The translations under genes and the position numbers were made by a program. This document shows, in pieces, positions 33,001-48,075 of a stretch of 64,000 nucleotides of DNA. The notes beneath the pieces were generated by a model. It was not told the origin of the DNA, did no database searches, and worked only from the letters and a program-made list of their open reading frames with translations. Positions within the stretch are counted from its first letter, which is position 1. The number at the start of each line of letters is the position of its first letter. Origin of the DNA: Alloprevotella tannerae (lineage in GTDB: Bacteria; Bacteroidota; Bacteroidia; Bacteroidales; Bacteroidaceae); the NCBI RefSeq assembly GCF_015259125.1, contig NZ_JABZGR010000005.1; one strand, written 5' to 3'.

Positions 33001-33713
33001 AACGAGAAATGGCATATGCGCTCTACTTAGCGGGCTTTGATGTCAAGGATGTGATGATGACCGATCTGATTAGCGGTCGCGAAACGCTTGACGACATTAA
33101 CTTTATAGTCTTCTGCGGTGGCTTCTCCAACTCGGACGTGCTGGGCAGTGCTAAGGGTTGGGCCGGCGCATTCTTATATAACCCGCAGGCCAAAGCGGCT
33201 TTGGATCGCTTTTATGCGAGAAAGGATACCTTAAGTTTGGGTGTATGTAATGGTTGTCAATTAATGATGGAACTCAATCTTATCAACCCCGAACACACGG
33301 CAAATGGAAAGATGCTGCACAACGATTCTCATAAGTTTGAAAGTGCATTTTTAGGCGTTTCTATTCCAGAAAACAACAGTGTTTTATTGGGTAATATGAG
33401 CGGAACTCAATTGGGCATTTGGGTAGCTCACGGAGAGGGAAAATTCTCCCTGCCGCTGGCTGAAGAAGAATATAATATTGTATTGAAATATACTTACGAC
33501 GCCTACCCGGGTACACCCAACGGCTCTGACTATTCTGTTGCCGGACTTTGTAGTGCCGACGGCCGCCACTTAGCTATGATGCCCCACTTGGAGCGCTCTA
33601 TCTTCACGTGGCAAAATGCTTATTATCCGGCCGACAAACTCAATGACGATGCCACGCCTTGGCTGCAAGCTTTTGTCAATGCACGCAATTGGGTGGCAGC
33701 ACATCAAAAATAA
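30009..33713 (+). CDS. purL: Phosphoribosylformylglycinamidine synthase (large single-chain PurL)
   Basis: 1234 aa. C-terminal class-I GATase has the catalytic Cys in GVCNGCQ. Confidence 0.9.
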   Translation: MILFFSNTTYNYIVVETTETLSPKNLEALCWLFGDAKLKHEQTIEGWFIGPRPEMITPWSTNAVEITQNMNIQGITRIEEFFHVEDETAEYDPMLQHLYHNLGQNVFITKREPTPIQFIEDIERYNEEEGLALSAAEITYLHNVEEQQGRRLTDSEIFGFAQINSEHCRHKIFGGTFIIDGKEMPSSLFAMIKKTTKEYPHKIVSAYKDNVAFSEGPTIEQFAPQDHSTSDYFIIKDIKSVTSLKAETHNFPTTVEPFNGAATGTGGEIRDRMAGGTGSWPIAGTAVYMTAYPRLDGGHPWEDILPVRKWLYQTPEQILIKASNGASDFGNKFGQPLICGSVLTFEHQENGEKYGYDKVIMLAGGVGYGTKRDCLKGEPAKGNKIVVVGGDNYRIGLGGGSVSSVDTGRYSSGIELNAVQRANPEMQKRANNLVRALCEEEVNPVVSIHDHGSAGHVNCLSELVEECGGLIEMDKLPIGDPTLSAKEIIANESQERMGLLIQEEHLAHVQKIADRERAPMYVVGETTGDAHFAFQQADGVRPFDLDVAQMFGHSPKTIMQDETVERKYENVVYQNSQLEEYLTQVLRLEAVACKDWLTNKVDRSVTGKIARQQCVGELQLPLADCGVVALDYRGKYGIATAIGHAPQAGLASPQAGSVLSVAEALTNIVWAPLSEGLDSVSLSANWMWPCRSQKGEDARLYQAVEALSDFCCDLNINVPTGKDSLSLSQQYPDGEKIISPGTVIVSAGGEVDNIRQVVTPNLKDVNASKLYHIDFSFDDLRLGGSAFAQTQKKVGSDVPVVKNPDYFRDAFNAVQRLVKQNLLLAGHDISAGGLITTLLEMCFANVNGGLEINLDAFVGGDLIKILFAENPGIVVQVANENEEAFQELLDEEGIGYALIGVPTEERHILLKQGNATYQLGIDYLRDVWYETSYLLDCKQSKNGCAKLRFENYRQQPLQFDLSTLKFNGTFKSLDINPDRREPSGLRAAIIREKGTNGEREMAYALYLAGFDVKDVMMTDLISGRETLDDINFIVFCGGFSNSDVLGSAKGWAGAFLYNPQAKAALDRFYARKDTLSLGVCNGCQLMMELNLINPEHTANGKMLHNDSHKFESAFLGVSIPENNSVLLGNMSGTQLGIWVAHGEGKFSLPLAEEEYNIVLKYTYDAYPGTPNGSDYSVAGLCSADGRHLAMMPHLERSIFTWQNAYYPADKLNDDATPWLQAFVNARNWVAAHQK

Positions 33714-33741
33714 AAGGCAAGAAGACTCACAAACACGTATT

Positions 33742-33788
33742 CAAATCATTCTCTACAAGGATATTATTCCGGTAGAGAATGATTTTTG
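33742..33788 (+). terminator. purL rho-independent terminator
   Basis: aatcattctctac-[loop]-gtagagaatgatt is a 13-bp stem followed by ttttgt. Confidence 0.6.
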
Positions 33789-34118
33789 TATACAAACGAT
33801 CATACAGCGCCTGGTTTTTTTAGCACAGTATCATATACGATTCCAATTAGTCTTAGTTGTTCACTCCTATACACGATAGCTTTTCAGTTATACTCCGAAT
33901 AGACTATTTTCTTATCGCTAATTATACTGCTTTCAGGAAGATTATATTTCATCACAACGTACTTGCTCGTTCACATAACGCATTTGTCATCCAACAACTT
34001 ATTAGTTTACGCTACAACAGCCTCACAAAGATTTCGTAGGACAAATTTGTGGGCAAATAGAATCATATAAATGACACTCAAAGTCAGCCTTAAAGGTACG
34101 TTGAACAAGTAATGATAA

Positions 34119-34157
34119 TGTACCATAGTGACAGTACGAGTTTACGCTCACGAAAGA
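34119..34157. repeat. Dispersed near-palindromic intergenic repeat, copy C. Degenerate, at the left edge of the mobile element.
   Basis: gtaccatagtgacagtacgagtttacgctcacgaaag. Confidence 0.5.
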
Positions 34158-34398
34158 AGATAATCCCTAAACTGTATCTAATTGAAAATAAAGAAGTTAC
34201 CTTATTGTATAAACTAAACAGGTAACGATTTGGAAACGAGCTAACTGCTTTTGGTCGCAAGTTTCTGCATTAACAAAGAACGCTTGTTATTCTATTTGCA
34301 AAGATAATCATTTGCTTTGAATAACAAGCGTTTTTGATGAGTTTTTCTTTCTTTTGCATCATCTGTTGTTTGGGAAGATTGAAAAATGAGGATAATGA

Positions 34399-35335
34399 TT
34401 ACAATCCTCTTCCTCTTTTCTTCTTTTTCTTGGCTTGGTTTCTGATCCTTTGCTGCCATGCTATCTCGGCATAGTCTTCGCCGTGTGTCTGCGGATTGAT
34501 TAACCCACCTGCTCCGAAAATGATTTCTTCGGCTGCATTTATGGTAGTACTTGCCACATTGCCTACGGCTTGTGCAATAGATGAACTTTCATTTGTGTTG
34601 GCAGATGGTATATAGGAGCGGCTGGGAGGGACAAGTTGATAGCCTCTATTGGATTGAGCGTTGTTCTTTGCCGGCTCGTCTGCCATTGTCGTTGCTTTCT
34701 TTGGTTCTGTCTTGTTGCTTATCTCAAAGTTCTTCTGCAAGGAACGGTAACCGAACTCCCTGCCGATTTCCGATGCCTTAAAAGTCTGTCCACTGTATGC
34801 GAACTTCAAGCCATATACCTTGCCCTGTTTGTTCTCTCGTTGAGTTGGCTTTTGGCTTCTGATGCAGCCTTTTCACCTTGACTTCCTTTGCGATGGTCAA
34901 GCCATACTTGCGGCTGAGTTCCTCTGTCACCCTTGCAGTCCTGTTGCTCACAAAAGTGGTATCATAGACCTCTCCATATAGGCTGATGCGGTTGGCAATG
35001 ATATGAATGTGTCTGTTGTCGGTGTCCTTGTGCGTTACTGCCACCCATTAGTGGTTGTCAAGTCCCATTCGCTTGGCAAACAAATGGTCTATTCCCATAA
35101 GCTTGGATACAGGCAGACTTTTCTCGTCCTGCGGTGCGATGCCTATTTCGATACGGAGAAACTTGTTCCTGCAACGGCTGTTATACTCGTTGACCACTTT
35201 CATTTCCTCATAGATTGTCTTTGGCTCCCTGCTGCAAAGATTGTGAAAGGCAAGCCGATAGCCGAGCTTGCCCTCTCTGAAAATATAGTCCAGAGCCGTA
35301 CTGCCGTGCGCTATCGCCTTACATTTTCCTATCAT
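34399..35335 (-). pseudogene. MobB-type relaxase, disrupted by an in-frame TAA at 35048-35050 and a frameshift near 34778-34809
   Basis: Three consecutive minus-strand ORFs. The first has a MobB-like N-terminus (MIGKCKAIAHGSTALDYIFRE). The second has relaxase motif III (HKDTDNRHIHIIANR). The third is a C-terminal tail. ORF1 and ORF2 are in the same frame, separated by a stop. ORF2 and ORF3 overlap in different frames. Confidence 0.75.
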
Positions 35336-35750
35336 CTCTTCTCATATTTAAGACCTTATATACCTCATCGTCCACACGAAAATGCGGGTCGTAAAATCGC
35401 TTAAATGCTTCTTTGGCACATAGCGAGAGGTTCTTTGTGATATGTAGCCAATCTTCGTCCTTGACCTTGATGAGGTTGGAAACCTGCCCATAGAATCTTC
35501 CTGTATGTTGGAGGATGGCAATGGCTTCCCTCTCGTTGTCGGTCATCTTGGGGACGGCTATTATCTCGCCGTTAAGGAGTATCTCACGGCAGTAGTCGGA
35601 GAACCTCCGCCCTGTATTTTCCGCTTTTGACTTGATACGCTGCTTCTCTTCTAAGGTGCATCTTACCTTGATGAACTCCGTTTTGTTCATCCGCTGTTCT
35701 TCCTTATCCTGTTGCTGCCATCGGGCAGCTTTTCCTTTGTATCTTTTCAT
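35319..35750 (-). CDS. Mobilization accessory protein (MobA/MobC-like relaxosome protein)
   Basis: 143 aa, basic. It overlaps the relaxase start, as in Bacteroides mobA-mobB pairs. The call rests on position and composition. Confidence 0.45.
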   Translation of the reverse strand: MKRYKGKAARWQQQDKEEQRMNKTEFIKVRCTLEEKQRIKSKAENTGRRFSDYCREILLNGEIIAVPKMTDNEREAIAILQHTGRFYGQVSNLIKVKDEDWLHITKNLSLCAKEAFKRFYDPHFRVDDEVYKVLNMRRDDRKM

Positions 35751-36021
35751 ATAAGTTTCTTAGAAAGTTAATCATTGTAGATGATTCATTGTTTCTTAAT
35801 TCCTGAATACTGACCGATGAGAACGGAGTGATTACGGTCTTATCTCCCCGACAATCGAACGAGGGGAGCAAGAGCAGTTTGTGGGTACAAACTGACGTCT
35901 TGCAATGTCAGTGACTAGACCATTTACGCACGAGGCGTTTTGCAGCCGAAAAGTGAATGCCGTGCATTCTGTGTTTAACTGTGTTCGTGGTGTTCTCATC
36001 ATTCAGATGTCTGCTTACTAA

Positions 36022-36084
36022 AAATATGATGTCATATTTACCCAAATATGACGTCTCATTTACGAGAATATGACATCATATTTT
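36022..36084. promoter_or_regulatory. Candidate oriT or regulatory iterons: three 18-bp palindromic units AAATATGA-NN-TCATATTT
   Basis: aaatatgatgtcatattt (36022-36039), aaatatgacgtctcattt (36044-36061), aatatgacatcatatttt (36067-36084). They lie upstream of mobA and downstream of the DUF3408 gene. Confidence 0.4.
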
Positions 36085-36151
36085 AATGCGATAGTAGGAT
36101 TAGAGCGGGAAATAAATCTTTTGAAATTCATCCCTCGCCCCCTCCTGCGGT

Positions 36152-36595
36152 TTATAACCTCCTCCATTTCTCTATGTCCTCACCGTATTCCTCCAGATGG
36201 AGGCGCACGATGTTCTCCACAAAACTTGAGAGGTTGCTGCGCCTGTCACCCAACCTGCGGACGACGAAGTCAGCACGCTCCTGTGTCTCCCTGCTCAGAT
36301 AAACCGCCTTTCGGTCGTTCAATTTGGACGGAACAAGGAACGCCTGTTTGTAGGCTTCGAGCGTTCCCCATCCCATCTTGGCACTGATGCGCCGTTGAAT
36401 GGTTGCATTCTCTGTGTGCTGTGCAGGTTCGGATGGCGTGGCATGTTCCACCTCTTGTTGCTTTTGAATAAAATTAATTCTCTTTGCCTGAAATTCGGCG
36501 ATGGTTTCTTCACTTGAACTTTGAGCTTGGCTTATAACCAAAAGATTCTTCGATGAAACGATCCCTTTCTTCTGTGTTTTTTCCTTTTTCATCAC
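36152..36595 (-). CDS. DUF3408-family protein, common in Bacteroides conjugative and mobilizable elements
   Basis: 147-aa protein next to the mob genes. The family call is from memory and moderately confident. Confidence 0.45.
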   Translation of the reverse strand: MMKKEKTQKKGIVSSKNLLVISQAQSSSEETIAEFQAKRINFIQKQQEVEHATPSEPAQHTENATIQRRISAKMGWGTLEAYKQAFLVPSKLNDRKAVYLSRETQERADFVVRRLGDRRSNLSSFVENIVRLHLEEYGEDIEKWRRL

Positions 36596-37256
36596 TCTAT
36601 CTTATTTTAAGTTTGACTTGTTTGGATCCAGCCATTTTCGTTTCGGGTGCTTAAAAAGGTAGGGGTTAGGGAATGCAAGGTTTTTCGGGAAAATACTACC
36701 CACAGGGCTGGAGATTTTTCCCGAAGACAGGAGGCTTGGCCTTGCTTTCCCGTCAAATCCCGGAGTTACCTTTACGCCCAGAACGAAAATGACTGTCTGA
36801 TGTGGCTCACTGAAAGGCGCGAAAATGGAGGTAAACGGAAGTAGAGGCTGATTAGATAGAAAACTTCAAAAGGGAAATCCGTGAAAAAAGTACCCCCCAA
36901 CAAAAAGAGCATAGCCAGTTGTGTGAAACTGGGCAAACCACCTGCAAGGGAGTATGGCTTTATCTGTCTGGCCAGACGTGTCGGATCGGGCGGTCATACA
37001 CGGCTTTCCGCTTTCGGCTCAAAGGAACAGCAAAAAAGAAAAATCATCTGAAAATCCCTTTTCTCCACTTATGCAGTAGTCGGCACACGTTCGTTCAAAA
37101 TCCTTTTGGGCGATGGTGTGCCGACAGACAAAAACCGATTTTACGGAATGTTGTTATGTTTATATTGGTAATATTTATTATTATAATTATAAAAACACGC
37201 TAATCATTTTGTCATTCGGACTATCTTTATTAAATTTGCAGATTATAGAAATAGTT

Positions 37257-37493
37257 ATGCAAATGAAGCGGATAAATCGACTGAAAATAGTGCTTGCGGA
37301 ACAAGATAAAACCGGGAAATGGTTGGCACATGCATTAGGTAAAAATGAATCGACAGTTTCTCGTTGGTGTACAAACGAAGTTCAGCCTTCAGTAGAAACA
37401 CTACTGACGATTGCCGAAACTTTAAAAGTTGATATTAAAGAATTACTTTGTTCTACGCAAATGTGTAATCAAGATGATAGTATCCAAATATAA
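37257..37493 (+). CDS. XRE-family HTH controller (C) protein of the modification module
   Basis: MQMKRINRLKIVLAEQDKTGKWLAHALGKNESTVSRWCTNEVQPSVETLLTIAETLKV matches a Cro/C1 HTH. A Bacteroides -7-like TAAATTTG sits at 37231-37238. The gene overlaps the methyltransferase start. Confidence 0.65.
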   Translation: MQMKRINRLKIVLAEQDKTGKWLAHALGKNESTVSRWCTNEVQPSVETLLTIAETLKVDIKELLCSTQMCNQDDSIQI

Positions 37494-38541
37494 AGCAATC
37501 GATTTTTTCTGCGGAGGAGGCGGAATGACTTGCGGTTTAAGACAGGCAGGGATTAACGTTATAGCAGGTGTGGACTTTGATCAAGATGCCAAAGAAACGT
37601 ATGAATACAATAATCTCGGAAGTGTTTTCATTCAAAAAAATATAAAGAATTTACGGAGTAATTATTTTGAGCGAAAATTCGAGATACGGAAAAATGACGA
37701 CTTTTTGATTTTGGTAGGATGCAGTCCCTGCCAATTTTACAGTATAATTAATACGGATAAGAATAAAGCCTTAAAATCGAAGGATTTATTAAAAAATTTT
37801 GCTCGCTTTATCGAATATTATAGACCGGGATATGTATTAGTGGAAAATGTTCCGGGTATAATCACAAATAAAGATAGCATCTTACCTTATTTTCTACGAA
37901 AACTGGAAGACCTCGGATATAAAAATCCCGTTTATAAAGTTGTAAATATGAGCTATTACGGTGTACCTCAAAGTCGTCGAAGATTTTCTCTTATCGCAAC
38001 ACGATTGGAAAACGTCAATATACATTTACCTAAGGCGGACGATAAAGAGACCGTATTAGCCGATTATTTAGGTGAAGGAAACGGCTTTCCCAAAGTTAGC
38101 GCAGGACATAAAGACGGTAGTGTGTTTAACCATACGGTTGCCGGATTAAGTGATATATGTCTTAAACGATTGGCAAAGACCAAACATGACGGTGGGAACA
38201 GACTTGATTGGGCAAACGATCCGGATTTGCAATTACCTTGCTTTATAGGAAAAGACGATTGCTTTAAAGATACATTTGGGCGTATGTGGTGGCATCGACC
38301 AGCTTCGACCATTACGACTAAATTTTATAGTATCTCAAACGGACGTTTTGGACATCCGGAAGAAGATCGTGCCCTTTCTTTACGGGAAGGTGCTACATTG
38401 CAAACGTTCCCCAAAAACTATGTATTTAAAACAAATAGTATTACTGCAACGGCAAAATTAATTGGCAATGCAGTTCCGTGTGAATATGCTCGGCGATTAG
38501 GTGAAACGATAAAAGCACTGGAAAACAATGGCACAATTTAA
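37474..38541 (+). CDS. dcm: DNA (cytosine-5)-methyltransferase (Dcm-type)
   Basis: Motif I DFFCGGGGMTCG, motif IV GCSPCQFYS and motif VI VLVENVPGI. The start at 37474 (MIVSKYKAIDFF) was chosen over the ORF-track start at 37429. Confidence 0.9.
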   Translation: MIVSKYKAIDFFCGGGGMTCGLRQAGINVIAGVDFDQDAKETYEYNNLGSVFIQKNIKNLRSNYFERKFEIRKNDDFLILVGCSPCQFYSIINTDKNKALKSKDLLKNFARFIEYYRPGYVLVENVPGIITNKDSILPYFLRKLEDLGYKNPVYKVVNMSYYGVPQSRRRFSLIATRLENVNIHLPKADDKETVLADYLGEGNGFPKVSAGHKDGSVFNHTVAGLSDICLKRLAKTKHDGGNRLDWANDPDLQLPCFIGKDDCFKDTFGRMWWHRPASTITTKFYSISNGRFGHPEEDRALSLREGATLQTFPKNYVFKTNSITATAKLIGNAVPCEYARRLGETIKALENNGTI

Positions 38542-41500
38542 AACTCGAGCAAGAGCTCTCGACTTATTGGGGCGACAACAAATTGCCGGTATCCCTACAG
38601 CCATTAACGAGCTTATAAAAAATGCGCATGATGCGTATGCGGATAAGTTCGATATCGATTTTCTCCGATGTAATAATCTGCTGGTATTACGCGATGACGG
38701 GCTCGGTATGACGAAAGAGGAATTTGAAACTCGTTGGCTTACGCTCGGGACCGAAAGTAAATTGGCAAATAAAAAAAGCAGTTTACCGCCCATTGACATA
38801 TCAAAGCCAAGACGTCCTATCATGGGAGAAAAAGGTATCGGAAGATTGGCTATTGCATCAATAGGAAGTCAGGTTTTGATTGTATCGAAAGCAAAATTAA
38901 GATCTAAAGAATATGATATTGTTGTGGCTTTCATTAATTGGGAGATATTCGAGTTGCCGGGGATTAACTTGGAGGATATTGTTATTCCGGTAAGAGAATA
39001 CTCTCGTATGCCGAATGCTGTCGATATTGACAATATTAAAAATGAAGTAATACAGTCCCTTGATAAATTAAACCAAAAAGGACTTATTGATGACAAGGAT
39101 TTTGAAAAAATAAAAAGTTCTATCACGTCTTTTCAAGTTGACCCACGCCAACTTTCCTTACAACTACAACAAGGATTTGAATTAACCAATGGTTGCGGCG
39201 GAACTCAATTTTTCATCTCCCCGGTTTACGATACGATTATTTCCGATATAGAGGGAGACGGCAATTCGGACGAAGCTACAAAAATCGAGAAAATGTTGAT
39301 GGGATTTCACAATACAATGACCCCCGATCATCCTTTTCCCGTCGTTGACATTTCATTTAGGGACTATAAGACGAACGACGGAAGTTTTGTCAGCATCATA
39401 GATAAAGAACATTTTTTTACAACAGAAGAATTTGAATTGGCAGATCATCATTTTCAAGGGCGATTTGATGAATTCGGACAATTCAAAGGATTAGTAAAAA
39501 TATATGGAGAAAAAACATACGATCACATTGTAAATTGGCGGGATAACTCTTATAGAGAAACCGAATGCGGTCCGTTTAAAATCAACTTGGCGTATTTACA
39601 AGGAGAATTGAAAAGTTCTCGTGTAGATGTCCAAAATTATGCCAGAATTAAAGCCAAAGGAGATAAATTCGGAGGTTTATACATATATAGAGATAATATT
39701 CGAGTTCTACCGTATGGGGACTCCGATTATGATTTTCTGGATATTGAAAAAAATCGTTCGAAACGAGCATCAACATATTTCTTTTCTTATCGACGAATGT
39801 TCGGCGCTATTGAAATAGCAGACCGAGAACACAGCAGTTTGGTAGAGAAAGCCGGACGCGAAGGTTTTATTGAAAATAAAGCATATCGTCAACTTCAAGC
39901 GATTTTAAAGAACTTCTTTGTACAACTTGCCGCTGATTTTTTCAGCGGAAAAAACAAAACTGCACAATCAGAATTTTTCAATCAGAAGAAAGACGAGTTT
40001 AATGCGTACCATAACGCGCTTGAACGTCGGGACAAATTAGCAAAATCGAAAAAGGAAAGATTTGCTCGTGAGCTCGATATCTTTTTTACCAGTTTAACGG
40101 AACATAAATTCGAAAACGAGCTGGAAGGGCTACTTACGCATTTTAGGAATGATTTACATTCTGTTTTATACATTAACGATGCGGATGAAGCAAGCCAGAA
40201 GATAATTGATCTGGAATTCGCCATGAGACAAAAAGTTGCCGATTATAAAAAAAGAATATCGGTAACAAGTCCCAAAGGATTTGCTATGTCAAAATCAATG
40301 AGAACAGATTTTGATACATACCTTAATGAGTTTAAAATTTTGGAACAAACGATATTTAAAAATATCAATGAAAATATCGATCGACTAATTGATGATTATA
40401 CGGCACAGCTGAATCTGGAAATAAGTAAGCGAAAGCGGTTGGAGCAAGCGGTGGAATTGATTTCAGCCGAGGCTTTGTCTCTTAATAAAAAGAAGAAAAG
40501 CGAAACTAATGATGTTGTTTCCGATGTTTCTCGTAAAATTAAGGATCTTACGAATGAGCTGATAATCGATTTAGATAATCAAATACGAAGCGTAAAGGAT
40601 CAATTCAAATTATTAGCAACCAATAAAGCCGATAACTTTGATTTGGTAACGGAACGCAAGAGAATGGAAACAGAAATAGAATCCATAAGCAGTCGAAATA
40701 CGGATGTTATGGAACGTATAATTCGACAATTTGAAAGTTTTTATGTTGAAAAAAACGAAGACGGTCAAATAATTACAAATGACCAAATAGCGGAAGCCGC
40801 TTCGGAAGAATTGGAGGAATTACGGGAACGATTACAATCGGACGTTGAATTAAGCCAATTAGGACTGGCTGTCGGGATATTGCACCATGAGTTCAACGGT
40901 ACGGTTAATTCGATTCGACATAGTCTGAAAGATTTAAAAGCATGGTCGGATGTAGACATCAAATTGGAAGGAATATACAAAAATATCAAGGTAAATTTCG
41001 AACATTTGGATGGCTATTTAAATTTGTTTACCCCGTTAAACCGACGATTGAATCGACGTAGAGAAGACATTTCTTTACTGGATATTAAAACATTTTTAAT
41101 AGATTTGTTCAAATCCCGTCTTGAACGACACAATATAGCTTTTAAACATACTAACGGGTTTGCAGGTCGAAAAATACACGGATTTCGTTCTACATTCTAT
41201 CCCGTATTTGTTAATATCATTGATAATGCCATTTATTGGTTGAAACAAAGTGATGTTCCTGAAAAAATTATTCGGCTGCATGCGGATGATACGGGAATAT
41301 ACATTTCCAATAACGGTATTGAAATAAAGCCCCAAGATAAGGAACGAATCTTTGAATTGAGATTTTCCAGAAAGCCCAATGGAAGAGGATTGGGGTTGAG
41401 TATAAGTAAAGAGGTTTTGAATGCAGAGAACTATGATATATTTGTGGCACAACCTAAGGAAGGTTCTACAGTTACTTTTAAAATTCAAAAAATGCAATAA
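38528..41500 (+). CDS. 990-aa protein with two Bergerat-fold ATPase modules. N-terminal MORC/MutL-like GHKL ATPase, central coiled-coil, C-terminal histidine-kinase core (DHp H-box plus HATPase_c).
   Basis: N-terminus: ELIKNAHDAYA (N-box), RDDGLGM (G1), GEKGIGRLA (G2). C-terminus: ILHHEFNGTVNSIRHSL (H-box-like), NIIDNAIYW (N-box), DDTGIYISNNGIEI (G1), GRGLGLSISKEV (G2). It overlaps the dcm stop by 14 bp. Confidence 0.7.
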   Translation: MAQFKTRARALDLLGRQQIAGIPTAINELIKNAHDAYADKFDIDFLRCNNLLVLRDDGLGMTKEEFETRWLTLGTESKLANKKSSLPPIDISKPRRPIMGEKGIGRLAIASIGSQVLIVSKAKLRSKEYDIVVAFINWEIFELPGINLEDIVIPVREYSRMPNAVDIDNIKNEVIQSLDKLNQKGLIDDKDFEKIKSSITSFQVDPRQLSLQLQQGFELTNGCGGTQFFISPVYDTIISDIEGDGNSDEATKIEKMLMGFHNTMTPDHPFPVVDISFRDYKTNDGSFVSIIDKEHFFTTEEFELADHHFQGRFDEFGQFKGLVKIYGEKTYDHIVNWRDNSYRETECGPFKINLAYLQGELKSSRVDVQNYARIKAKGDKFGGLYIYRDNIRVLPYGDSDYDFLDIEKNRSKRASTYFFSYRRMFGAIEIADREHSSLVEKAGREGFIENKAYRQLQAILKNFFVQLAADFFSGKNKTAQSEFFNQKKDEFNAYHNALERRDKLAKSKKERFARELDIFFTSLTEHKFENELEGLLTHFRNDLHSVLYINDADEASQKIIDLEFAMRQKVADYKKRISVTSPKGFAMSKSMRTDFDTYLNEFKILEQTIFKNINENIDRLIDDYTAQLNLEISKRKRLEQAVELISAEALSLNKKKKSETNDVVSDVSRKIKDLTNELIIDLDNQIRSVKDQFKLLATNKADNFDLVTERKRMETEIESISSRNTDVMERIIRQFESFYVEKNEDGQIITNDQIAEAASEELEELRERLQSDVELSQLGLAVGILHHEFNGTVNSIRHSLKDLKAWSDVDIKLEGIYKNIKVNFEHLDGYLNLFTPLNRRLNRRREDISLLDIKTFLIDLFKSRLERHNIAFKHTNGFAGRKIHGFRSTFYPVFVNIIDNAIYWLKQSDVPEKIIRLHADDTGIYISNNGIEIKPQDKERIFELRFSRKPNGRGLGLSISKEVLNAENYDIFVAQPKEGSTVTFKIQKMQ

Positions 41501-41504
41501 AAAT

Positions 41505-43037
41505 ATGGATGACAGATTTATCGAACAATCGAAAGAGATTGCAAACAACTTTATACAAAATATAGTATTTATTGACGACAAGGCATATAAAGAAGACTCC
41601 ACCAATAATGCCTTTAGTACGTTGGATGTATCAAATGCATTTGCAAAAACAGGTAAAATTTGTGCCATATACGCGCCCCAATCCGTTTCGGATATAGATA
41701 GCTACAATGTTATTTTGAGAAAAGCTGATGTGGTTATTTTAGATTGGTATTTAAATATTGAAAGAGACGCGGAACAACAGTTAGATCCTGATGCGGATGC
41801 AGAGAATGATGAACCTCGAGGAGAATTTACTTTAAAATTACTAAAACAACTTACAAGTGATGCCGGGACTGATAAGTTAAAATTGATCATAGTATATACG
41901 GGAGAAACAAGAATTTCAGACATTAAGGATGAAATTATAAACAATATTGATTCGGACTCATTTAAAGTTAACGATTATACGATAAAGTCTTCAAATGTTT
42001 GTATTATAATCCGTGCAAAAGCCGGAAAAAATTTCGAACACATACCGGAATACAAGCCATTGATCGTAGAATATGATAAACTTCCAGAGCTAATATTAAC
42101 GGAGTTTACTAATCTAACCAACGGACTTTTATCCAACTTTGCTTTATCGGCAATAACCACAATTAGAAATAATACATCAAAAATATTAGGCAGTTTTTCT
42201 CCTAAGTTAGATCCGGCTTATTTAGGACATCGAGTAAATCTTCCTAATCCGAATGACGCTAAAGAACTTTTAGTGCAACTGTTTGGTGATGCGATAGCCG
42301 AATTAATTGGAAGCGAAAATATCGATACAAATACATGGGTTGAGAATTGGATACACAATCGAATAGAGGAAAAGACTATAAACCTTGCCGGGAAAAATTT
42401 AACCGTCAATCAAAAAATTTTGTGTCAAATTATTAGTGCCGTTTCGCCTGATTTAAATACCAAAATTGACTCTGCGACCAAAATAAGTTTAGGGAAAAAG
42501 GCTCCTAAACTTGCGTCACAACTTTTCCAGTATGGAGATATTCAAATAGAAGATTCCGATATTTCTTTTGCAAAACTAACTCATCATAAGAATATATTTC
42601 TTCCACAACAAAAAAGGCCGATGCTTACGCTTGGTACAATTATCAAGAATATTAGCTCTAATCTTTATTACATTTGTATGCAACAAAGATGTGATTCCGT
42701 TCGAATACAAGGAGAAAGACGATTCTTATTCTTGCCGTTAGAACAAAATGAAGAACATTACTCAATTATAGTCAGCAAAGAATCTAAATTTAGAATAAAC
42801 GAATCTTCGTATGCTCTAAAAACCATCAAATTCAGAGCAAATAATGATGAACAGGCGATATATGCAGTAAAGAATGATAATGGTAAATATTTATTTACTT
42901 CCATCCATCAAGAACAATATGAATGGGTTGTAGACTTAAAAGAAATGCATGCCCAACGTATTGTGAATAATTATTGTGCGCAGTTGTCCCGTGTAGGATT
43001 AAATGAATCCGAATGGTTGAGATTACAAGCCAAATAA
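41505..43037 (+). CDS. 511-aa protein with a receiver (REC)-like N-terminal domain and an uncharacterised C-terminal region
   Basis: NIVFIDDKAY (beta1, DD), ADVVILDWYL (candidate phospho-acceptor Asp), LKLIIVYTGE (beta4, Thr). Unusually long acidic insert after the Asp. It starts 4 bp after the upstream stop. The start at 41505 (MDDRF) was chosen over 41421. Confidence 0.45.
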   Translation: MDDRFIEQSKEIANNFIQNIVFIDDKAYKEDSTNNAFSTLDVSNAFAKTGKICAIYAPQSVSDIDSYNVILRKADVVILDWYLNIERDAEQQLDPDADAENDEPRGEFTLKLLKQLTSDAGTDKLKLIIVYTGETRISDIKDEIINNIDSDSFKVNDYTIKSSNVCIIIRAKAGKNFEHIPEYKPLIVEYDKLPELILTEFTNLTNGLLSNFALSAITTIRNNTSKILGSFSPKLDPAYLGHRVNLPNPNDAKELLVQLFGDAIAELIGSENIDTNTWVENWIHNRIEEKTINLAGKNLTVNQKILCQIISAVSPDLNTKIDSATKISLGKKAPKLASQLFQYGDIQIEDSDISFAKLTHHKNIFLPQQKRPMLTLGTIIKNISSNLYYICMQQRCDSVRIQGERRFLFLPLEQNEEHYSIIVSKESKFRINESSYALKTIKFRANNDEQAIYAVKNDNGKYLFTSIHQEQYEWVVDLKEMHAQRIVNNYCAQLSRVGLNESEWLRLQAK

Positions 43038-43041
43038 CACA

Positions 43042-43461
43042 ATGTCTGATATTTTTTCTTCTCAAAAGCGATCGGATATTATGTCTAAAATCAGTGGAAA
43101 AAACACAAACCCGGAGATTTTAGTTCGTAAGTTTTTATTTTCAAAAGGATTCAGATATCGTATTAATGTCAAAATATTGCCGGGTAAACCTGATATAGTT
43201 TTACCTAAATATAAAACAGTAATATTTATAAACGGATGTTTTTGGCATGGACATAATTGTAAAAAGGGGAAATTACCATCCTCAAATATAGATTTTTGGA
43301 AGGAAAAAATATCAAACAACAAATCACGTGATGATAAAAATTCCGATTTACTTGTAAAACTCGGCTGGAAAGTTATAATTATATGGCAATGTGAAGTTAG
43401 TAAGATTGATAATAGGATAAAAATACTTAATAAGTTACTGGAAGATATCAAACAACAATAA
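43042..43461 (+). CDS. vsr: Very-short-patch repair endonuclease Vsr
   Basis: KRSDIMSKI matches E. coli Vsr RSKNMRAI. FINGCFWHGHNC matches Vsr FTHGCFWHHHHC. 139 aa. Confidence 0.9.
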   Translation: MSDIFSSQKRSDIMSKISGKNTNPEILVRKFLFSKGFRYRINVKILPGKPDIVLPKYKTVIFINGCFWHGHNCKKGKLPSSNIDFWKEKISNNKSRDDKNSDLLVKLGWKVIIIWQCEVSKIDNRIKILNKLLEDIKQQ

Positions 43462-44001
43462 TCACGAGATATTAAATCTAAAATACAAATGCATTAATCG
43501 AGAAAATATATGAAAAACTTATTCTATAATTCGGGTTTTAGTCTTATCTTTGCAGTAAAGAGTTCTTTGAAGGTTACGCAAAGCACAGAAGGATAATGCA
43601 GTAGATAACTAACTAAATCGTAACCTATTACTATCAAGAGCGATTAACCTACACTCATTTCCTATAAATTACACTCTTTTCGTAACTTCATGCTACAAAG
43701 ATATAAAATAATGGGCTTACACACTTTTATTGGACGGATAGAGCGGTGCTCCCCGAAACTGTCCATTGCCAAGAACTTCCTCTTCGCCTGCATTCCTCTC
43801 TTCGGGGTGTAGATTAGGGGCATCTACGTATGCAGTCTGCGGTTGAGCTTCATCCACATTACACCGAAGAACCTTACGAGTTCGCCCTCCGTCATGGTAA
43901 TGCCTCCGTTTCCTTTTCGGACAACATGCATATCGTCTCCCCAATCAAGGTAACTGCGCTGATTGGTTACGCGTGCTTTTTTTTGTGAGTATTGATTGCT
44001 T

Positions 44002-45321
44002 TCATACCGTCTCCTCCTTTCTTTCATTTGAACTGACAACCAATGGTATTGTCTTAGTGTTTGTTGCTGCTTCCACATCTGCATTTGCCATATTTTTGTC
44101 CTTAGCCTTGTACTTGGCGATGAGCCTGTCCATGTCCTCCGAAATCTTATTATCGGTTATCTGTGCATAGATTTGTGTGCTGGCGATAGAGGTGTGCCCC
44201 ATCATCTTGGCAATGCTCTCTATGGGAATACCAGCACTCAGACTCATCATACCGAAAGTGTGACGTGCCATGTGGTATGACAACCGCTGTCTGACACCGC
44301 AAGCCTTGCCCACGATGTTCAGCTTGCTATTTAAAACACTGCGGCTGCAATCACAGTTGAAAACATGGCTGACGCCTTTTTCTTTCACCGTCTGCTGTTC
44401 TTCGTTTCCTGCCTGCGCATTCCTGCAATGGCTGATGATAGTTTCAGCTATGGGATGTAACGGCACGACAAACTCAACCTTTGTCTTCTGACGCTCCTTG
44501 CGTATATATCTCTGTCCGTCTGCTGCCGTTTGGATATGGCTGTATTCCAAATTTTCCATATCAGCGATAGCCATACCTGTGAAGCAGGAGAAGACGAACA
44601 TCAGCCGAGCCAATTCCGATTCTCTGTCGTTCATCGTCATTGCCATGAGTTTCATTACATCGCCCTTTTGCAAGAAGCGTATCTTCTTTTCCTCCTTCTC
44701 ATACTTGGCGTTCTCAAAGGAATTGCAGCGGATAATCCTCCTGCTCACCGCACGAAACATCAGTCGGCTCAGCCAACAGAGATTGGTATAGACAGTCGAT
44801 GCTTTCAGCCCACGCTTCTTAAGAAAGAAGCGGTATTCCTCAAAGAAACTCTCCGTAATGGTGGAGATAGATATGTCTTGTACTCCTTTGTTATCGATAA
44901 ATTCTCGGAGATTTCTATCAGAATAGTAAAGGTTCAGATAAGTCCCCTCTGCCCTTGACTTTCCAACGCTTTCCTTGACAGCTTGCAGTTCCGCCTTGCT
45001 CATTGCAAGGAGCGTGGTGGGGTTGGTGGCAATGCCTTGCAAACTGTTCTTGATAAGTTCCACACTTACCACTCCTTCCATCGTCAGTATGTCCCGATAG
45101 GTTCTTTCTATCAATTCCCTGAACTCATTGATTCTTTGGTTGGTCTTCCTATTGGTTGTCAAACCCTGTTTGGTGTTCCACTCGGAGGGATTGCACTCTT
45201 CACCTGTGCTAATGGCTGTGCTCTTTCCGTCGATGGTGATACGGCAGAGAATGGCGGTATTGCCGTCTGCCTTTGTTTTCTGTCTGTTGATATAGAATAG
45301 AGTCTTGAATGTACTTCTCAT
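44002..45321 (-). CDS. Tyrosine site-specific integrase (Bacteroides IntDOT/IntN1-like)
   Basis: HMARHTFGMM...GHTSIASTQIYAQI (R/H-x-x-R/Y catalytic box). The N-terminus MRSTFKTLFYINRQKTKADGN is typical of Bacteroides integrases. Confidence 0.85.
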   Translation of the reverse strand: MRSTFKTLFYINRQKTKADGNTAILCRITIDGKSTAISTGEECNPSEWNTKQGLTTNRKTNQRINEFRELIERTYRDILTMEGVVSVELIKNSLQGIATNPTTLLAMSKAELQAVKESVGKSRAEGTYLNLYYSDRNLREFIDNKGVQDISISTITESFFEEYRFFLKKRGLKASTVYTNLCWLSRLMFRAVSRRIIRCNSFENAKYEKEEKKIRFLQKGDVMKLMAMTMNDRESELARLMFVFSCFTGMAIADMENLEYSHIQTAADGQRYIRKERQKTKVEFVVPLHPIAETIISHCRNAQAGNEEQQTVKEKGVSHVFNCDCSRSVLNSKLNIVGKACGVRQRLSYHMARHTFGMMSLSAGIPIESIAKMMGHTSIASTQIYAQITDNKISEDMDRLIAKYKAKDKNMANADVEAATNTKTIPLVVSSNERKEETV

Positions 45322-45349
45322 AATGATTTTAGTTTTTATATGTCTATTG

Positions 45350-46579
45350 CTAAATACTCATCTGCATATCCTCCGTGAAAGAAAGGAAACGATTAAACTC
45401 CTCAAAGAGTTTTTGGGGTGTAACCTTTGCATAACGCTCGGTCATACTTACGTTGCTATGTCCGAGCATCTTGCTCACCGTTTCTATTGGAACTCCTTGC
45501 TCAAGCGTGATAAGCGTGGCAAAGGTGTGTCTTGCAGTATGCGTGGTAAAGGGAAAGGCTATACCCTCTCTAAGGCGCAATGCTTTAAGATACGATTGAT
45601 AGGTGGCATACTTCATCTGTGGCAGCAGCGTTTCCCTTTCTTCGCTTCGATACTTCTCTATTATCCTAATCGCTTCGGGCAACAACTTAATACGGCAAAG
45701 TACACCTGTCTTCTTCCTATTGAACTTCATCCAAAGATTTTCCTCATCATCACGGACAAGATGTATCTTACTTAATCCCATTAAATCACAATAGGCTGCA
45801 CCTGTATGACAGGCAAAAACAAACAAATCCCTTGCTGTTTCCATTTCTTCCTCCAACTCTCCGAAGTGGGTATTCATTAGTTTGTCAAGTGAACGTCTGT
45901 CAAGTGCCTTTGGGAGTTTCTTATCACCTCTTGCTATCTTTACATTAGCAAATAATAAGGTGTCAGCCAATCCTTCACGGTATGCCAACCTGCATACGGT
46001 CTTTATTTGGGATGCAACTGCATAGAAACTACTTTCCTGTAACCCTAATTTGTTCAAGTTGTAGTCCCTGAAATCATAAATGAAATTTTCTGTAAGTTGC
46101 GAGAAAGACAAATCTTCCACCTTGTACTTGTCTTCGATAAATGTCCGAAGATTATTACGGGTAGTATAGTAATTGGAAATTGTTTCTCTCTTAATGTCAA
46201 TTCCAATATGTTCTTTCTTCTCCCTGATGAGGATGTCCAATCGTTCGATAAGCATACATCGTGTCTGTACGCTGCCTTGAAACAGTTCCTTTACATCGGT
46301 TGCGTCAAATGGGCAACCTTTGGAAAGTAAGGCTTGATAAGCCGACTGAACAGACAACAGCAAACTCTCCAACCTGCCGTTTATCTCTACTGCCTCACGA
46401 CTCTTGCCGTCCACTCTACTCTCACGGGGATTCCACAACTCTGGATTGCAGGAGAGTTTACAACTGAACTGGGCAACATTCCTTCCAAGTGTGATACGTC
46501 CCATAATCGGAGCCTTGCCCGACTTGTCAAGACCGCTCTTTTTGAGGTAGAGCAACACCTTCATTTTCTCTTGTTTCAT
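45350..46579 (-). CDS. Tyrosine site-specific integrase, second tandem copy
   Basis: HTARHTFATL...GHSNVSMTERYAKV. N-terminus MKVLLYLKKSGLDKSGKAPIMGRI. Confidence 0.85.
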   Translation of the reverse strand: MKQEKMKVLLYLKKSGLDKSGKAPIMGRITLGRNVAQFSCKLSCNPELWNPRESRVDGKSREAVEINGRLESLLLSVQSAYQALLSKGCPFDATDVKELFQGSVQTRCMLIERLDILIREKKEHIGIDIKRETISNYYTTRNNLRTFIEDKYKVEDLSFSQLTENFIYDFRDYNLNKLGLQESSFYAVASQIKTVCRLAYREGLADTLLFANVKIARGDKKLPKALDRRSLDKLMNTHFGELEEEMETARDLFVFACHTGAAYCDLMGLSKIHLVRDDEENLWMKFNRKKTGVLCRIKLLPEAIRIIEKYRSEERETLLPQMKYATYQSYLKALRLREGIAFPFTTHTARHTFATLITLEQGVPIETVSKMLGHSNVSMTERYAKVTPQKLFEEFNRFLSFTEDMQMSI

Positions 46580-46883
46580 ACGCTTTAATTTTTATGGGCA
46601 AAGTTACCCGAATTAAAGCGTTCCTCACTTATGCAGAAAACTGCCGACCACAGCAACAGCCACACGAGCGAAAATAATTTGGTCACCTATTTCTTCTCCA
46701 TCGTTACCAACATCAAAACAAGGTAACACTCTGGTAACTGAACTTCTGCCTAAATCTGCATATTCCTGCCCTTTACAAATAGAGCAGTCTTATGCAAATC
46801 ATTTCGTTTCCATCTCATTATCAGTTAGTTTATGTCAACTTCGACATTTTTTCATTTTCATTGATTAGTTACAGAAAAATTGT

Positions 46884-46943
46884 CGTACCATCACGATGGT
46901 ACATTCGTCCTCTCACAATGGTACAAGTAATTTATCACGATGC
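46884..46943. repeat. Dispersed near-palindromic intergenic repeat, copy D, at the right edge of the mobile element
   Basis: cgtaccatcacgatggtacattcgtcctctcacaatggtac...ttatcacgatg. Confidence 0.65.
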
Positions 46944-47100
46944 AAATCTTGAAGTAAAAGATCTCGGTTTTCAGTTCCTAAGCAACTGCAAAGCAAAAGT
47001 AAACTTAAGTGTTATGAAAAGGGAGATATTAAGAAAAGTATAAGGCAGAGTAGCATTGAAAAGACGGATAGTTTTGACTTATTATAGTGTAAATCTCACT

Positions 47101-48075
47101 CTAATGAATCATTTTACCTCTTTCTTTCTCATATAGTTGCCACGAATTATATATATTGTGCCAAATAGCATAGGTGGCGCCGGCCAAAGATGTGACCGGG
47201 TTGAGAAACGTAAAGCTGATCCACATTTCAAAAGCCGTGTTTTTTTGTCCCAAAGATTGACCTGCGCCTATCCTACATTTATATTTGCGCCCGATTTTAT
47301 GACCTAATGAAAATTGAATCAGGCAGCAGAGTGCGGAAATGGTGGCTATACAGAAAAAGTCGAAGAGCGTGATGTCGCTGTGTACGATATATTTGGTGGC
47401 AAGTGTGATAGAAATAGCTAAAGAAACGGCCCAAATATAAAAAGCCAAATCTTTCGTGCGTGTAACCTTTTGATGTAGTCTATGGAAGAACTTCTGCGTG
47501 ATGACAGCACTGAAGAAAGGTAGAATCAACATTGGAAATATTTGAGCCAGAATACGGCAGGAGGCGGAGAAAAAGGTTATACCTTCTTGGGGATAGATAA
47601 GGGGCAGGCCAAGGGGTAGACATAGTGCAACAGATAGGTTGATGAGTATACAGTAAGTCGTAAGTCCTGCCACGTCGCCGCCTAATTTTTGTGTGATAAC
47701 AGGTGCCGCTGTCGCCGTAGGCGTAATAAAACAGAGCAAGACCGACTCCCATAATAACTTTTCCGGAATCTGCGGGAAGAGATAGAGTAGCAGGATAATA
47801 GAACCATAAATAAGCATTTGAATAAGAAAGAGCCACAAATGCCAGACCTTGAATCTGATCTCTCGCAGATTGATCTTGCAGAATGCAATGAAGAGCATCG
47901 CAAAGATTAGACAGGGCTGGATGATCGGGAGTGCGATGTTGGCAAATTTATGCGTGCTGTCTAAGAAGGGAATGTTGATATAAATAAAATAACTGAGGAC
48001 GCCTGCAATCATTGCAATTAAGAGAGTCCATGATTTCAGCGTTTGTTTAATGTCCATTTTTATGTTCCTTTTCAA
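47101..48075 (-). CDS. Polytopic membrane protein, possibly a BASS/AEC-type transporter
   Basis: 324 aa, many hydrophobic segments. The family is not verified. Confidence 0.3.
   Translation of the reverse strand: MKRNIKMDIKQTLKSWTLLIAMIAGVLSYFIYINIPFLDSTHKFANIALPIIQPCLIFAMLFIAFCKINLREIRFKVWHLWLFLIQMLIYGSIILLLYLFPQIPEKLLWESVLLCFITPTATAAPVITQKLGGDVAGLTTYCILINLSVALCLPLGLPLIYPQEGITFFSASCRILAQIFPMLILPFFSAVITQKFFHRLHQKVTRTKDLAFYIWAVSLAISITLATKYIVHSDITLFDFFCIATISALCCLIQFSLGHKIGRKYKCRIGAGQSLGQKNTAFEMWISFTFLNPVTSLAGATYAIWHNIYNSWQLYEKERGKMIH

Follow-up and report, generated by a model that had tools for sequence, protein, structure and literature searches.

The 64,000-nucleotide stretch of Alloprevotella tannerae DNA analyzed here (contig NZ_JABZGR010000005.1, referred to below, at its full length, as the window) contains an intact, mobile five-gene operon, the core of which is a trio formed by a C5-cytosine DNA methyltransferase (Dcm), a 990-residue protein that resembles a histidine kinase (the kinase-like protein), and a 510-residue protein with a receiver domain (the receiver-like protein). 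The chances appear to be about even that this trio is a methylation-keyed, phosphorelay-gated restriction or abortive-infection module, acting in immunity or addiction, with these three proteins as its core.

The architecture itself is not new. A paper of 2021 (PMC8011034) had already defined the two families to which the kinase-like and receiver-like proteins belong (PF19191 and PF19192) and reported that they are linked to C5-methylases and Vsr, and the combination of a GHKL ATPase with a kinase core was listed in 2008 (PMC2441816). The novelty implied by a preliminary description of this DNA is thus not supported, and the window is a further member of a computationally defined family. Given that the family and its associations were already in print, the value of the window lies in its being a clean, intact, and mobile example, and in new comparative observations, that is, the invariance of the trio in 65 loci, the conservation of its residues, the negative searches for a nuclease, a tentative toxin-like fold, the mobility of the block, the swapping of a segment of the receiver-like gene, and the frequency of the trio in Escherichia coli.

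Organization of the Operon

The genes were delimited from the six-frame list of open reading frames (ORFs) of the window, and are arranged as follows:

37257-37493, plus strand: gene of an XRE-family helix-turn-helix protein (78 residues), an accessory part
37474-38541, plus strand: gene of the C5-cytosine DNA methyltransferase Dcm (ATG start, 355 residues)
38528-41500, plus strand: gene of the kinase-like protein (990 residues)
41505-43037, plus strand: gene of the receiver-like protein (510 residues)
43042-43461, plus strand: gene encoding Vsr, a very-short-patch repair endonuclease (139 residues)
37049-43699, plus strand: low-GC cassette of these five genes, which moves as a unit between different backbones

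All five plus-strand genes are intact, and they follow one another closely, with a 20-nucleotide (nt) overlap between XRE and Dcm, a 14-nt overlap between Dcm and the kinase-like gene, and 4-nt gaps at both the kinase/receiver and receiver/Vsr junctions. The GC content is 0.33-0.41 in the operon and 0.42-0.46 in its flanks. The Dcm, kinase-like, and receiver-like proteins are identical to the NCBI Alloprevotella tannerae proteins WP_303763166/167/169. Dcm matches PF00145 (DNA_methylase) at 2.2e-52 and TIGR00675 with 132 bits, while Vsr matches PF03852 at 5.2e-34 and TIGR00632 with 143 bits.

Much of the preliminary description is borne out by these data. It had reported five tightly packed plus-strand genes, overlapping or 4 base pairs apart, as the ORF list confirms, and its domain calls agree with the Pfam searches of all five proteins. 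It gave the correct length for the kinase-like protein (990 residues), and 511 instead of the actual 510 residues for the receiver-like protein. The motifs that it quoted were all found in the translations, that is, FCGGGG, PCQ, and ENV in Dcm (in which QSRRR and GNAVP can also be read), HHEFNG, with H787, in the kinase-like protein, and ILDWYL, with D80, in the receiver-like protein.

Conservation and Distribution of the Trio

Gene content was compared in 76 loci, one genome per species, which were obtained from a scan of a genome collection with an alignment of the receiver-like proteins, and whose six-frame ORFs were searched with the five window proteins. The Dcm, kinase-like, and receiver-like genes are co-directional and adjacent, in this order, in every locus with enough sequence (65/65 complete trios, from many bacterial phyla), with the C5-methylase always directly 5′ of the kinase-like gene, an arrangement that is far beyond chance; in one Leptospira locus, the order of the trio is rearranged. 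The kinase/receiver pair is thus tightly linked to C5-methyltransferases across phyla, and neither the kinase-like nor the receiver-like protein was found to belong to an experimentally characterized restriction or defense family.

No nuclease gene was found as a constant partner among the neighbors of the 76 loci, and the invariant unit is therefore the Dcm/kinase/receiver trio. The neighbors that recur are variable and defense-like, and include McrB-like (14 loci), McrC-like (7), and HNH_2 (12) proteins, a second C5-methylase (11), and ATPases of the AbiL/OLD-type ABC group. In approximately 14 species, the McrB-like gene (MrcB_N) lies directly 3′ of the trio, and several of these add a McrC-like gene (DUF2357 plus PDDEXK_7). 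The loci that combine the trio with a McrB-like gene are L009, L010, L012, L013, L017, L020, L023, L043, L045, L057, L061, L065, and L077, and some of them have a second C5-methylase upstream, which places a Type IV system that depends on 5-methylcytosine (5mC) beside a 5mC writer.

The trio was matched in 197 of 5426 complete E. coli genomes (approximately 3.6%), and can therefore be tested directly in a model organism. In the uropathogenic strain NU14 (L080, NZ_CP019777.1, 4844100-4857515), it is found without Vsr or XRE genes, and its members (WP_000635307.1, WP_001063091.1, and WP_000204612.1) are annotated as ‘DNA cytosine methyltransferase’, ‘ATP-binding protein’ (986 residues), and ‘response regulator receiver domain’ (555 residues), the last two being 41% and 29% identical, respectively, to the kinase-like and receiver-like proteins of the window. 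The NU14 trio adjoins a cdiA/cdiI contact-dependent inhibition locus, among IS66/IS3 remnants. Phage genomes contained no match to the trio, plasmids contained two in 72,556, and viral contigs contributed seven loci. The system resides, in essence, in chromosomes or on integrative elements.

Modular Evolution of the Trio

The receiver-like protein is the fastest-evolving member of the trio, with typical identities to the window of approximately 40%, compared with 55-70% for the methylase and approximately 70% for the kinase-like protein. In Bacteroides finegoldii, Odoribacter, and Phocaeicola coprocola, the XRE protein, methylase, and kinase-like protein are 96-97% identical to those of the window, while the receiver-like protein is only 56-58% identical. 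Within the receiver-like gene, one segment stands out:

41839-42666, plus strand: hypervariable or recombining segment of the receiver-like gene (residues ~112-388), covering the second half of the receiver domain and the helical middle

Nucleotide homology to loci L007, L008, and L011 runs at 94% up to position 41839, is then undetectable, and returns at 42666 with 82%, and the protein identity, taken interval by interval, falls to 23-47% in this segment. Across the family as a whole, conservation of the receiver-like protein is lowest at residues 271-330. These sequence comparisons indicate that residues ~112-388 are replaced between otherwise near-identical operons.

The kinase-like and receiver-like genes, in turn, travel as a block that is independent of the methylase. 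The Neptunicella and Pseudoalteromonas loci are 92-94% identical to the Marinomonas locus, at the nucleotide level, over exactly these two genes, while the methylases of these loci are only 31-32% identical, and represent a separate lineage with a target-recognition region approximately 28 residues longer. For Neptunicella L050 and Marinomonas L055, the identities are 97% for the kinase-like protein, 95% for the receiver-like protein, and 32% for the methylase, with target-recognition domains of different lengths, and the co-evolution of the restriction and modification components expected of a classical Type II system is not seen in this pair. Pairwise identities of the kinase-like and receiver-like proteins are strongly correlated (r = 0.87), in contrast with those of the methylase and either of them (r = 0.53-0.58). 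The exchange of modules and the swapping of the segment therefore fit, but do not prove, a kinase/receiver module that would have no DNA-sequence specificity of its own, and in which the receiver-like protein would present an arms-race surface.

The Kinase-Like Protein

The kinase-like protein has an N-terminal ATPase of the paraMORC-type GHKL group, a conserved middle region, an apparent helical linker of approximately 300 residues, and a kinase core formed by DHp (HEF_HK) and CA domains. Pfam identifies HATPase_c_3 (residues 24-136), HEF_HK (777-843), and HATPase_c (891-987), with the match to HEF_HK (PF19191) covering the whole profile (1-67/67) at 91.3 bits, against a gathering cutoff of 24.1. 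The predicted site of phosphorylation lies within this match:

40886-40888, plus strand: codon for His787 (HHEFNG), the histidine predicted to accept the phosphate, within the HEF_HK DHp match

A profile search of the PDB, based on 20 diverse homologues, matched residues ~764-994 to the HisKA-type kinases ThkA, HK853, and ZraS (up to 5e-17), and residues 28-131, weakly, to Hsp90/HtpG and MutL, and returned no match for residues 140-760. Residues ~480-775 are almost devoid of Gly and Pro and yield only coiled-coil-type noise in Pfam, in keeping with a helical linker of some length.

The N-terminal Bergerat motifs E28, N32, D56xGxG, and G100xxGxG are each invariant in 66/66 sequences, as are H787-E-F, N896, N900, G930, and G952xGxG of the kinase core, which correspond to the H-box and the N, G1, and G2 boxes; the neighboring H786 is kept in only 82%. 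The G225-T226 pair, a candidate for GHKL motif IV, is also invariant, and the middle region has the invariant residues D306, H307, D314, D400, D402, E407, R410, E440, K441, R444, and E445. With its catalytic residues intact, the enzyme looks functional.

The Receiver-Like Protein and its Output Region

In the receiver-like protein, Response_reg_2 (PF19192) matches residues 16-172 with 87 bits, against a cutoff of 27. Two features of the gene are of particular relevance to its possible function:

41742-41744, plus strand: codon of Asp80, the predicted phospho-acceptor (ILDWYL)
42627-43034, plus strand: conserved C-terminal beta-domain (residues ~375-480) and terminal helix (481-510), the candidate effector

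D80 and D24 are each kept in 65/66 sequences and K172 in 66/66, while D25 is kept as D or E, and T132 as T or S, and these same five residues are present at a level of at least 90% in 135 representatives. A strongly acidic, low-confidence loop (NIERDAEQQLDPDADAENDEPRGEF), encoded at 41745-41823 (residues 81-106), follows directly after Asp80, and is unusual for receiver domains.

The receiver domain is followed by a variable helical middle, the conserved beta-domain, and the C-terminal helix. In the predicted structure of residues 186-510 (predicted local distance difference test score of 86), the middle domain is all-helical, with a single beta-hairpin, the beta-domain (residues ~375-480) has seven strands, and the terminal helix is long. 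The most conserved residues of this output region in the 135 representatives are G207, R221, D236, H242, C391, Q393, C396, D397, and R400, together with the terminal motif R496-G498-E503-W504-R506. A C2H2 zinc site formed by H360/H361 and C391/C396 was considered, and was dropped because the histidines vary among the representatives.

The structural model suggests, tentatively, and as a lead rather than a result, that the C-terminal domain has a CcdB/MazF toxin-like fold. No catalytic residues of MazF/CcdB-type toxins could be identified in this domain, and the alignment of the beta-domain profile with MazF, CcdB, and Kid sequences in hhalign gave a probability of <1%, the toxin sequences being approximate. 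The ToxN/AbiQ abortive-infection RNases are structurally related to the CcdB/MazF/Kid toxins. The domain of the window differs from the CcdB/MazF/Kid toxins in having a receiver fused to it in place of an antitoxin partner, and has no sequence similarity to them.

The region of the C-terminal domain, for which 1.84 billion representatives were searched, forms 1403 clusters at 50% identity. Among the best 150 matches, the full-length proteins share one architecture, with a receiver-sized N-terminus of approximately 180-250 residues, while approximately 16 shorter proteins look like fragments. Proteins of approximately 297 residues annotated as ‘RES family NAD+ phosphorylase’ (407 contigs) share the 90% cluster of the receiver-like protein, with no visible similarity. 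These proteins were rejected as relatives, given that the sequences are unrelated, and their grouping is probably an artefact of the clustering, for which a bridging fusion may be responsible. In three loci (L016, L064, and L068), a frameshift or stop divides the receiver-like gene into two ORFs, with the kinase-like and methylase genes intact; such copies may have lost their activity, which would be in line with a toxic effector.

The Missing Nuclease and the Proposed Function

The preliminary description had recognized no restriction endonuclease in the operon, and this holds for the receiver-like protein in sequence, profile, and fold searches, and for the kinase-like protein in sequence and profile searches. 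Pfam returned no nuclease family at E ≤ 10 over 51 homologues of the receiver-like protein, and none at E ≤ 1, in sequence searches, over 20 diverse homologues of the kinase-like protein, while NCBIfam and PADLOC contained nothing relevant to a hidden nuclease in either of them. Sequence, profile, and fold searches of the receiver-like protein revealed no PD-(D/E)xK, HNH, GIY-YIG, or PLD fold, and its sequence and profile searches against the PDB produced no match. The known nuclease fold of a classical Type II restriction-modification (R-M) system (PD-(D/E)xK, HNH, GIY-YIG, PLD, or half-pipe) was thus not encountered in these searches.

A signaling-type restriction or abortive-infection system had been suggested for the operon, a function that stands as a proposal. 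In such a system, the C5-methyltransferase and Vsr, as identified from their domains, would mark the host DNA and repair the T:G mismatches that result from the deamination of 5mC, respectively, which are roles that follow established knowledge of the two families. The N-terminal MORC/MutL-type GHKL ATPase, together with the middle region and the linker, may form an ATP-driven, dimerizing sensor of unmodified DNA, or the input may alternatively be the engagement of the methylase with unmodified DNA. Sensing would activate the DHp/CA core, leading to the autophosphorylation of His787 and the presumed transfer of the phosphate to Asp80, both of which are conserved residues. Phosphorylation would then free the C-terminal effector domain of the receiver-like protein, which could stop either the invader or the cell, by growth arrest and abortive infection, or by a non-classical nuclease activity. 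The kinase-like and receiver-like proteins would thus constitute a specificity-free ‘R’ module, with an exchangeable methylase providing the self-marking, and the XRE protein acting as an optional regulator.

A more specific version of this proposal is rather doubtful. It would recognize a new class of R-M-like immunity, in which a MORC-type clamp detects missing 5mC and signals through a His-to-Asp relay to an effector with the CcdB/MazF fold, with the methylase as an exchangeable cartridge and a diversifying middle region in the receiver-like protein.

Some observations weigh against the restriction or abortive-infection module proposed here. The Foldseek match of the beta-domain to the CcdB/MazF/Kid toxins is not significant, and neither PemK nor CcdB was matched in Pfam at E ≤ 10 in the 51 receiver homologues. 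In addition, the partner of the kinase/receiver pair is a C5-methylase in all of the complete loci, which a generic restriction model leaves unexplained.

Alternative Explanations

The DHp/CA core and the receiver domain are both bona fide, and the authors of the 2021 study favored a signaling cascade that controls R-M systems (PMC8011034). These points are compatible with an ordinary cytoplasmic two-component regulator, in which the kinase-like protein would sense a cue inside the cell, for example nucleotide pools or the state of the DNA, and the receiver-like protein would be a transcription factor for the methylase or the neighboring restriction genes. The helix-helix-beta-hairpin at residues ~251-301 of the receiver-like protein could even be winged-helix-like, which is our own reading and has no database support. 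This explanation is considered to be unlikely.

A conventional ATP-dependent restriction enzyme, with a cryptic nuclease in residues ~290-450 of the kinase-like protein, and the receiver-like protein as a regulatory or accessory subunit, is no more probable than the two-component regulator, and no less. REBASE lists R.EcoUTORF4938P as a putative Type II enzyme, and in R.HgiDII, a genuine restriction enzyme, a GHKL domain at the N-terminus is followed by a C-terminal part that has no assignment (PMC2441816). The kinase-like protein resembles R.HgiDII/BbrUII in its related N-terminal GHKL domain and C5-methylase partner, and the NCBIfam model of these enzymes (NF050001) matches its residues 9-134 (67.8 bits, 6.9e-19). 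However, this match is confined to the GHKL domain, lies at profile positions 8-129 of 659, and falls far below the cutoff of 550 bits, and the C-terminal parts are unrelated. The middle region does have many invariant acidic, basic, and His residues, but these equally fit the second half of a GHKL module and an S5-type transducer, and the region yielded neither a nuclease family nor a PDB match in the searches described above. A sequence-specific restriction enzyme, moreover, would not be expected to tolerate a swap to a methylase of 31% identity.

The least probable alternative is the maintenance or repair of 5mC, in which the paraMORC ATPase would serve, like MutL, as a matchmaker, loading Vsr at T:G mismatches or stimulating it there, tuned by the phosphorelay; this would account for the exclusive partnership with C5-methylases (65/65) and would be in line with the functional interaction of Vsr with E. 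coli MutL, a GHKL ATPase (PMC2292703), but would leave the toxin-like domain and hypervariability of the receiver-like protein, and the defense-island neighbors, unexplained. Vsr is co-transcribed here, following a 4-nt gap, and its gene is no more than 3 kb from the trio in 31/76 loci, but approximately 40% of the loci, E. coli NU14 among them, have no Vsr within 8 kb. Vsr is a frequent but dispensable companion of the trio.

If the trio does act in defense or addiction, as favored here, it would be the first R-M-like system with a phosphorelay as its ‘R’ arm, it would tie the prokaryotic MORC-type ATPases, whose function has been open since 2008, to two-component signaling, and it would provide an effector domain that is new. 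This is a large family, found in gut and oral Bacteroidota and in E. coli, including uropathogenic strains. In the Bacteroidales, the trio may hinder genetic manipulation and horizontal transfer. The trio of the window lends itself well to experiments, above all by way of its E. coli orthologues.

Relationship to Known Systems

The families HEF_HK (PF19191) and Response_reg_2 (PF19192) were defined by Bellieny-Rabelo, Pretorius & Moleleki (Genome Biol Evol 2021, PMC8011034), who found the two genes to be linked in 91.6% of cases across 644 regions, typically with a C5-methylase upstream, and with Vsr mostly directly 3′ of the receiver-like gene, as in Bacteroides, Prevotella, Porphyromonas, and Hallella. 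Their study, which was purely computational, proposed that the kinase-like protein derives from paraMORC ATPases, and recognized no known domain in the C-terminal 340 residues of the receiver-like protein (PMC8011034). The pair of the window belongs to their ‘group 1’ (HATPase_c_3+HEF_HK+HATPase_c), with the same gene order, that is, C5-methyltransferase upstream and Vsr downstream (PMC8011034). Nothing essential differs, and the XRE gene that precedes the trio is an addition that most loci lack.

Orlowski & Bujnicki had, in 2008, assigned to the putative Type II enzymes of REBASE a subfamily represented by R.EcoUTORF4938P, in which a GHKL domain forms the N-terminus and a histidine-kinase ATPase the C-terminus, with no assignment for the part between them (PMC2441816). 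This domain layout is like that of the kinase-like protein of the window, the receiver partner having gone unnoticed at that time, and R.EcoUTORF4938P is probably the kinase-like protein of NU14. In the same year, Iyer, Abhiman & Aravind reported R-M operons in which paraMORC GHKL ATPases accompany cytosine methylases and Vsr (PMC2292703), and experiments on the GHKL-Shedu protein VcSduA have since shown that a GHKL ATPase can gate a defense effector (PMC12137116). The operon of the window shares with the MORC/paraMORC R-M systems a MutL/MORC-type GHKL ATPase beside cytosine methylases and Vsr. In those systems and in VcSduA, the ATPase is paired with helicases or with a fused PD-(D/E)xK nuclease, whereas in the window it is instead fused to a histidine-kinase core, with the output passing through a separate receiver protein that has no recognizable nuclease.

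No model in PADLOC-DB 2.0.0, a release not verified to include Detocs, matches either the kinase-like or the receiver-like protein, and no experimental characterization of the HEF_HK/Response_reg_2 trio, either as phenotype or biochemistry, was found in the literature. Detocs (Rousset et al. 2023) is reportedly a two-component-like anti-phage system, with a kinase, DtcA, a buffer receiver, DtcB, and a receiver with a nucleoside-phosphorylase (PNP) effector, DtcC. The likeness is conceptual, in that both would combine a cytoplasmic kinase-like sensor with a receiver fused to a non-transcriptional, cell-harming effector. Unlike Detocs, the operon of the window has no second receiver gene and no PNP domain, and it includes a methylase, which Detocs lacks.

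The XRE Protein and Regulatory Sequences

The XRE protein matches the helix-turn-helix families HTH_3 (4.9e-9) and HTH_26 (5e-9) in Pfam, and its start has been called elsewhere at an upstream ATG (37113), which would give a protein of 126 residues. It had been labeled a controller (C) protein, of which the XRE helix-turn-helix is confirmed and the C label is unproven, given that an XRE gene accompanies the trio, upstream, in only approximately 10/76 loci, and that only AT-rich, imperfect palindromes (37159-37195) were found upstream, which do not establish a C-box. The XRE protein is a possible controller or repressor, and would be an optional regulator.

The sequence TAAATTTG, at 37231-37238, lies 19 nt 5′ of the XRE ATG, and fits the Bacteroides -7 promoter consensus, which is TAnnTTTG. 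A scan for sigma-70 promoters and terminators produced hits at the level of shuffled sequences only, the sigma-70 model being inapplicable to the Bacteroidota, and Rfam gave no match over 33000-48000. A 22-nt hairpin (GTCGGCACAC...GTGTGCCGAC) is found at 37079-37125, just upstream of the start of the AT-rich stretch.

The Mobile Element and its Nested Cassette

The operon is contained in a mobile element, as had been claimed in the preliminary description. The element is located between purL (30009-33713) and uvrB (48047-50080), and the integrases, the mobilization (mob) remnants, and a block shared with Hallella seregens all support its mobile nature:

34157-46872, no strand assigned: integrative mobilizable element of 12.7 kb, with mob remnants, the cassette, and two tyrosine integrases
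34399-36595: NikA-like, DUF3408, and relaxase remnants (Pfam matches of the called genes, that to Relaxase being faint)
44002-46579: two tyrosine integrases (two Pfam Phage_integrase matches)

The whole span of 34157-46872 is approximately 91% identical, at the nucleotide level, to a contig of Hallella seregens ATCC 51272 (L005), with no similarity beyond the span. The cassette alone (37049 to ~43699) is present in other backbones, in Phocaeicola, Bacteroides finegoldii, Odoribacter, and Phocaeicola coprocola, with homology to L007, L008, and L011 beginning at 37049, and that to L004 and L008 ending at 43699 and 43689, respectively. Mobility is thus nested, with a 6.6-kb cassette inside a 12.7-kb element.

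No convincing att-type direct repeat or tRNA gene was found at either end of the island. A 16-nt direct repeat (TTCTCCACTTATGCAG / TTCCTCACTTATGCAG) is present at 37061-37076 and 46621-46636, with one copy where the cassette begins and the other a short distance upstream of the outer integrase gene. The relaxase, at 34399-35335 on the minus strand, is read as three successive ORFs, of 95 residues (with the start MIGKCKAIAHG), 88 residues (with the histidine motif HIHIIANR), and 136 residues, and appears to be a pseudogene, a single gene broken by a stop and a frameshift.

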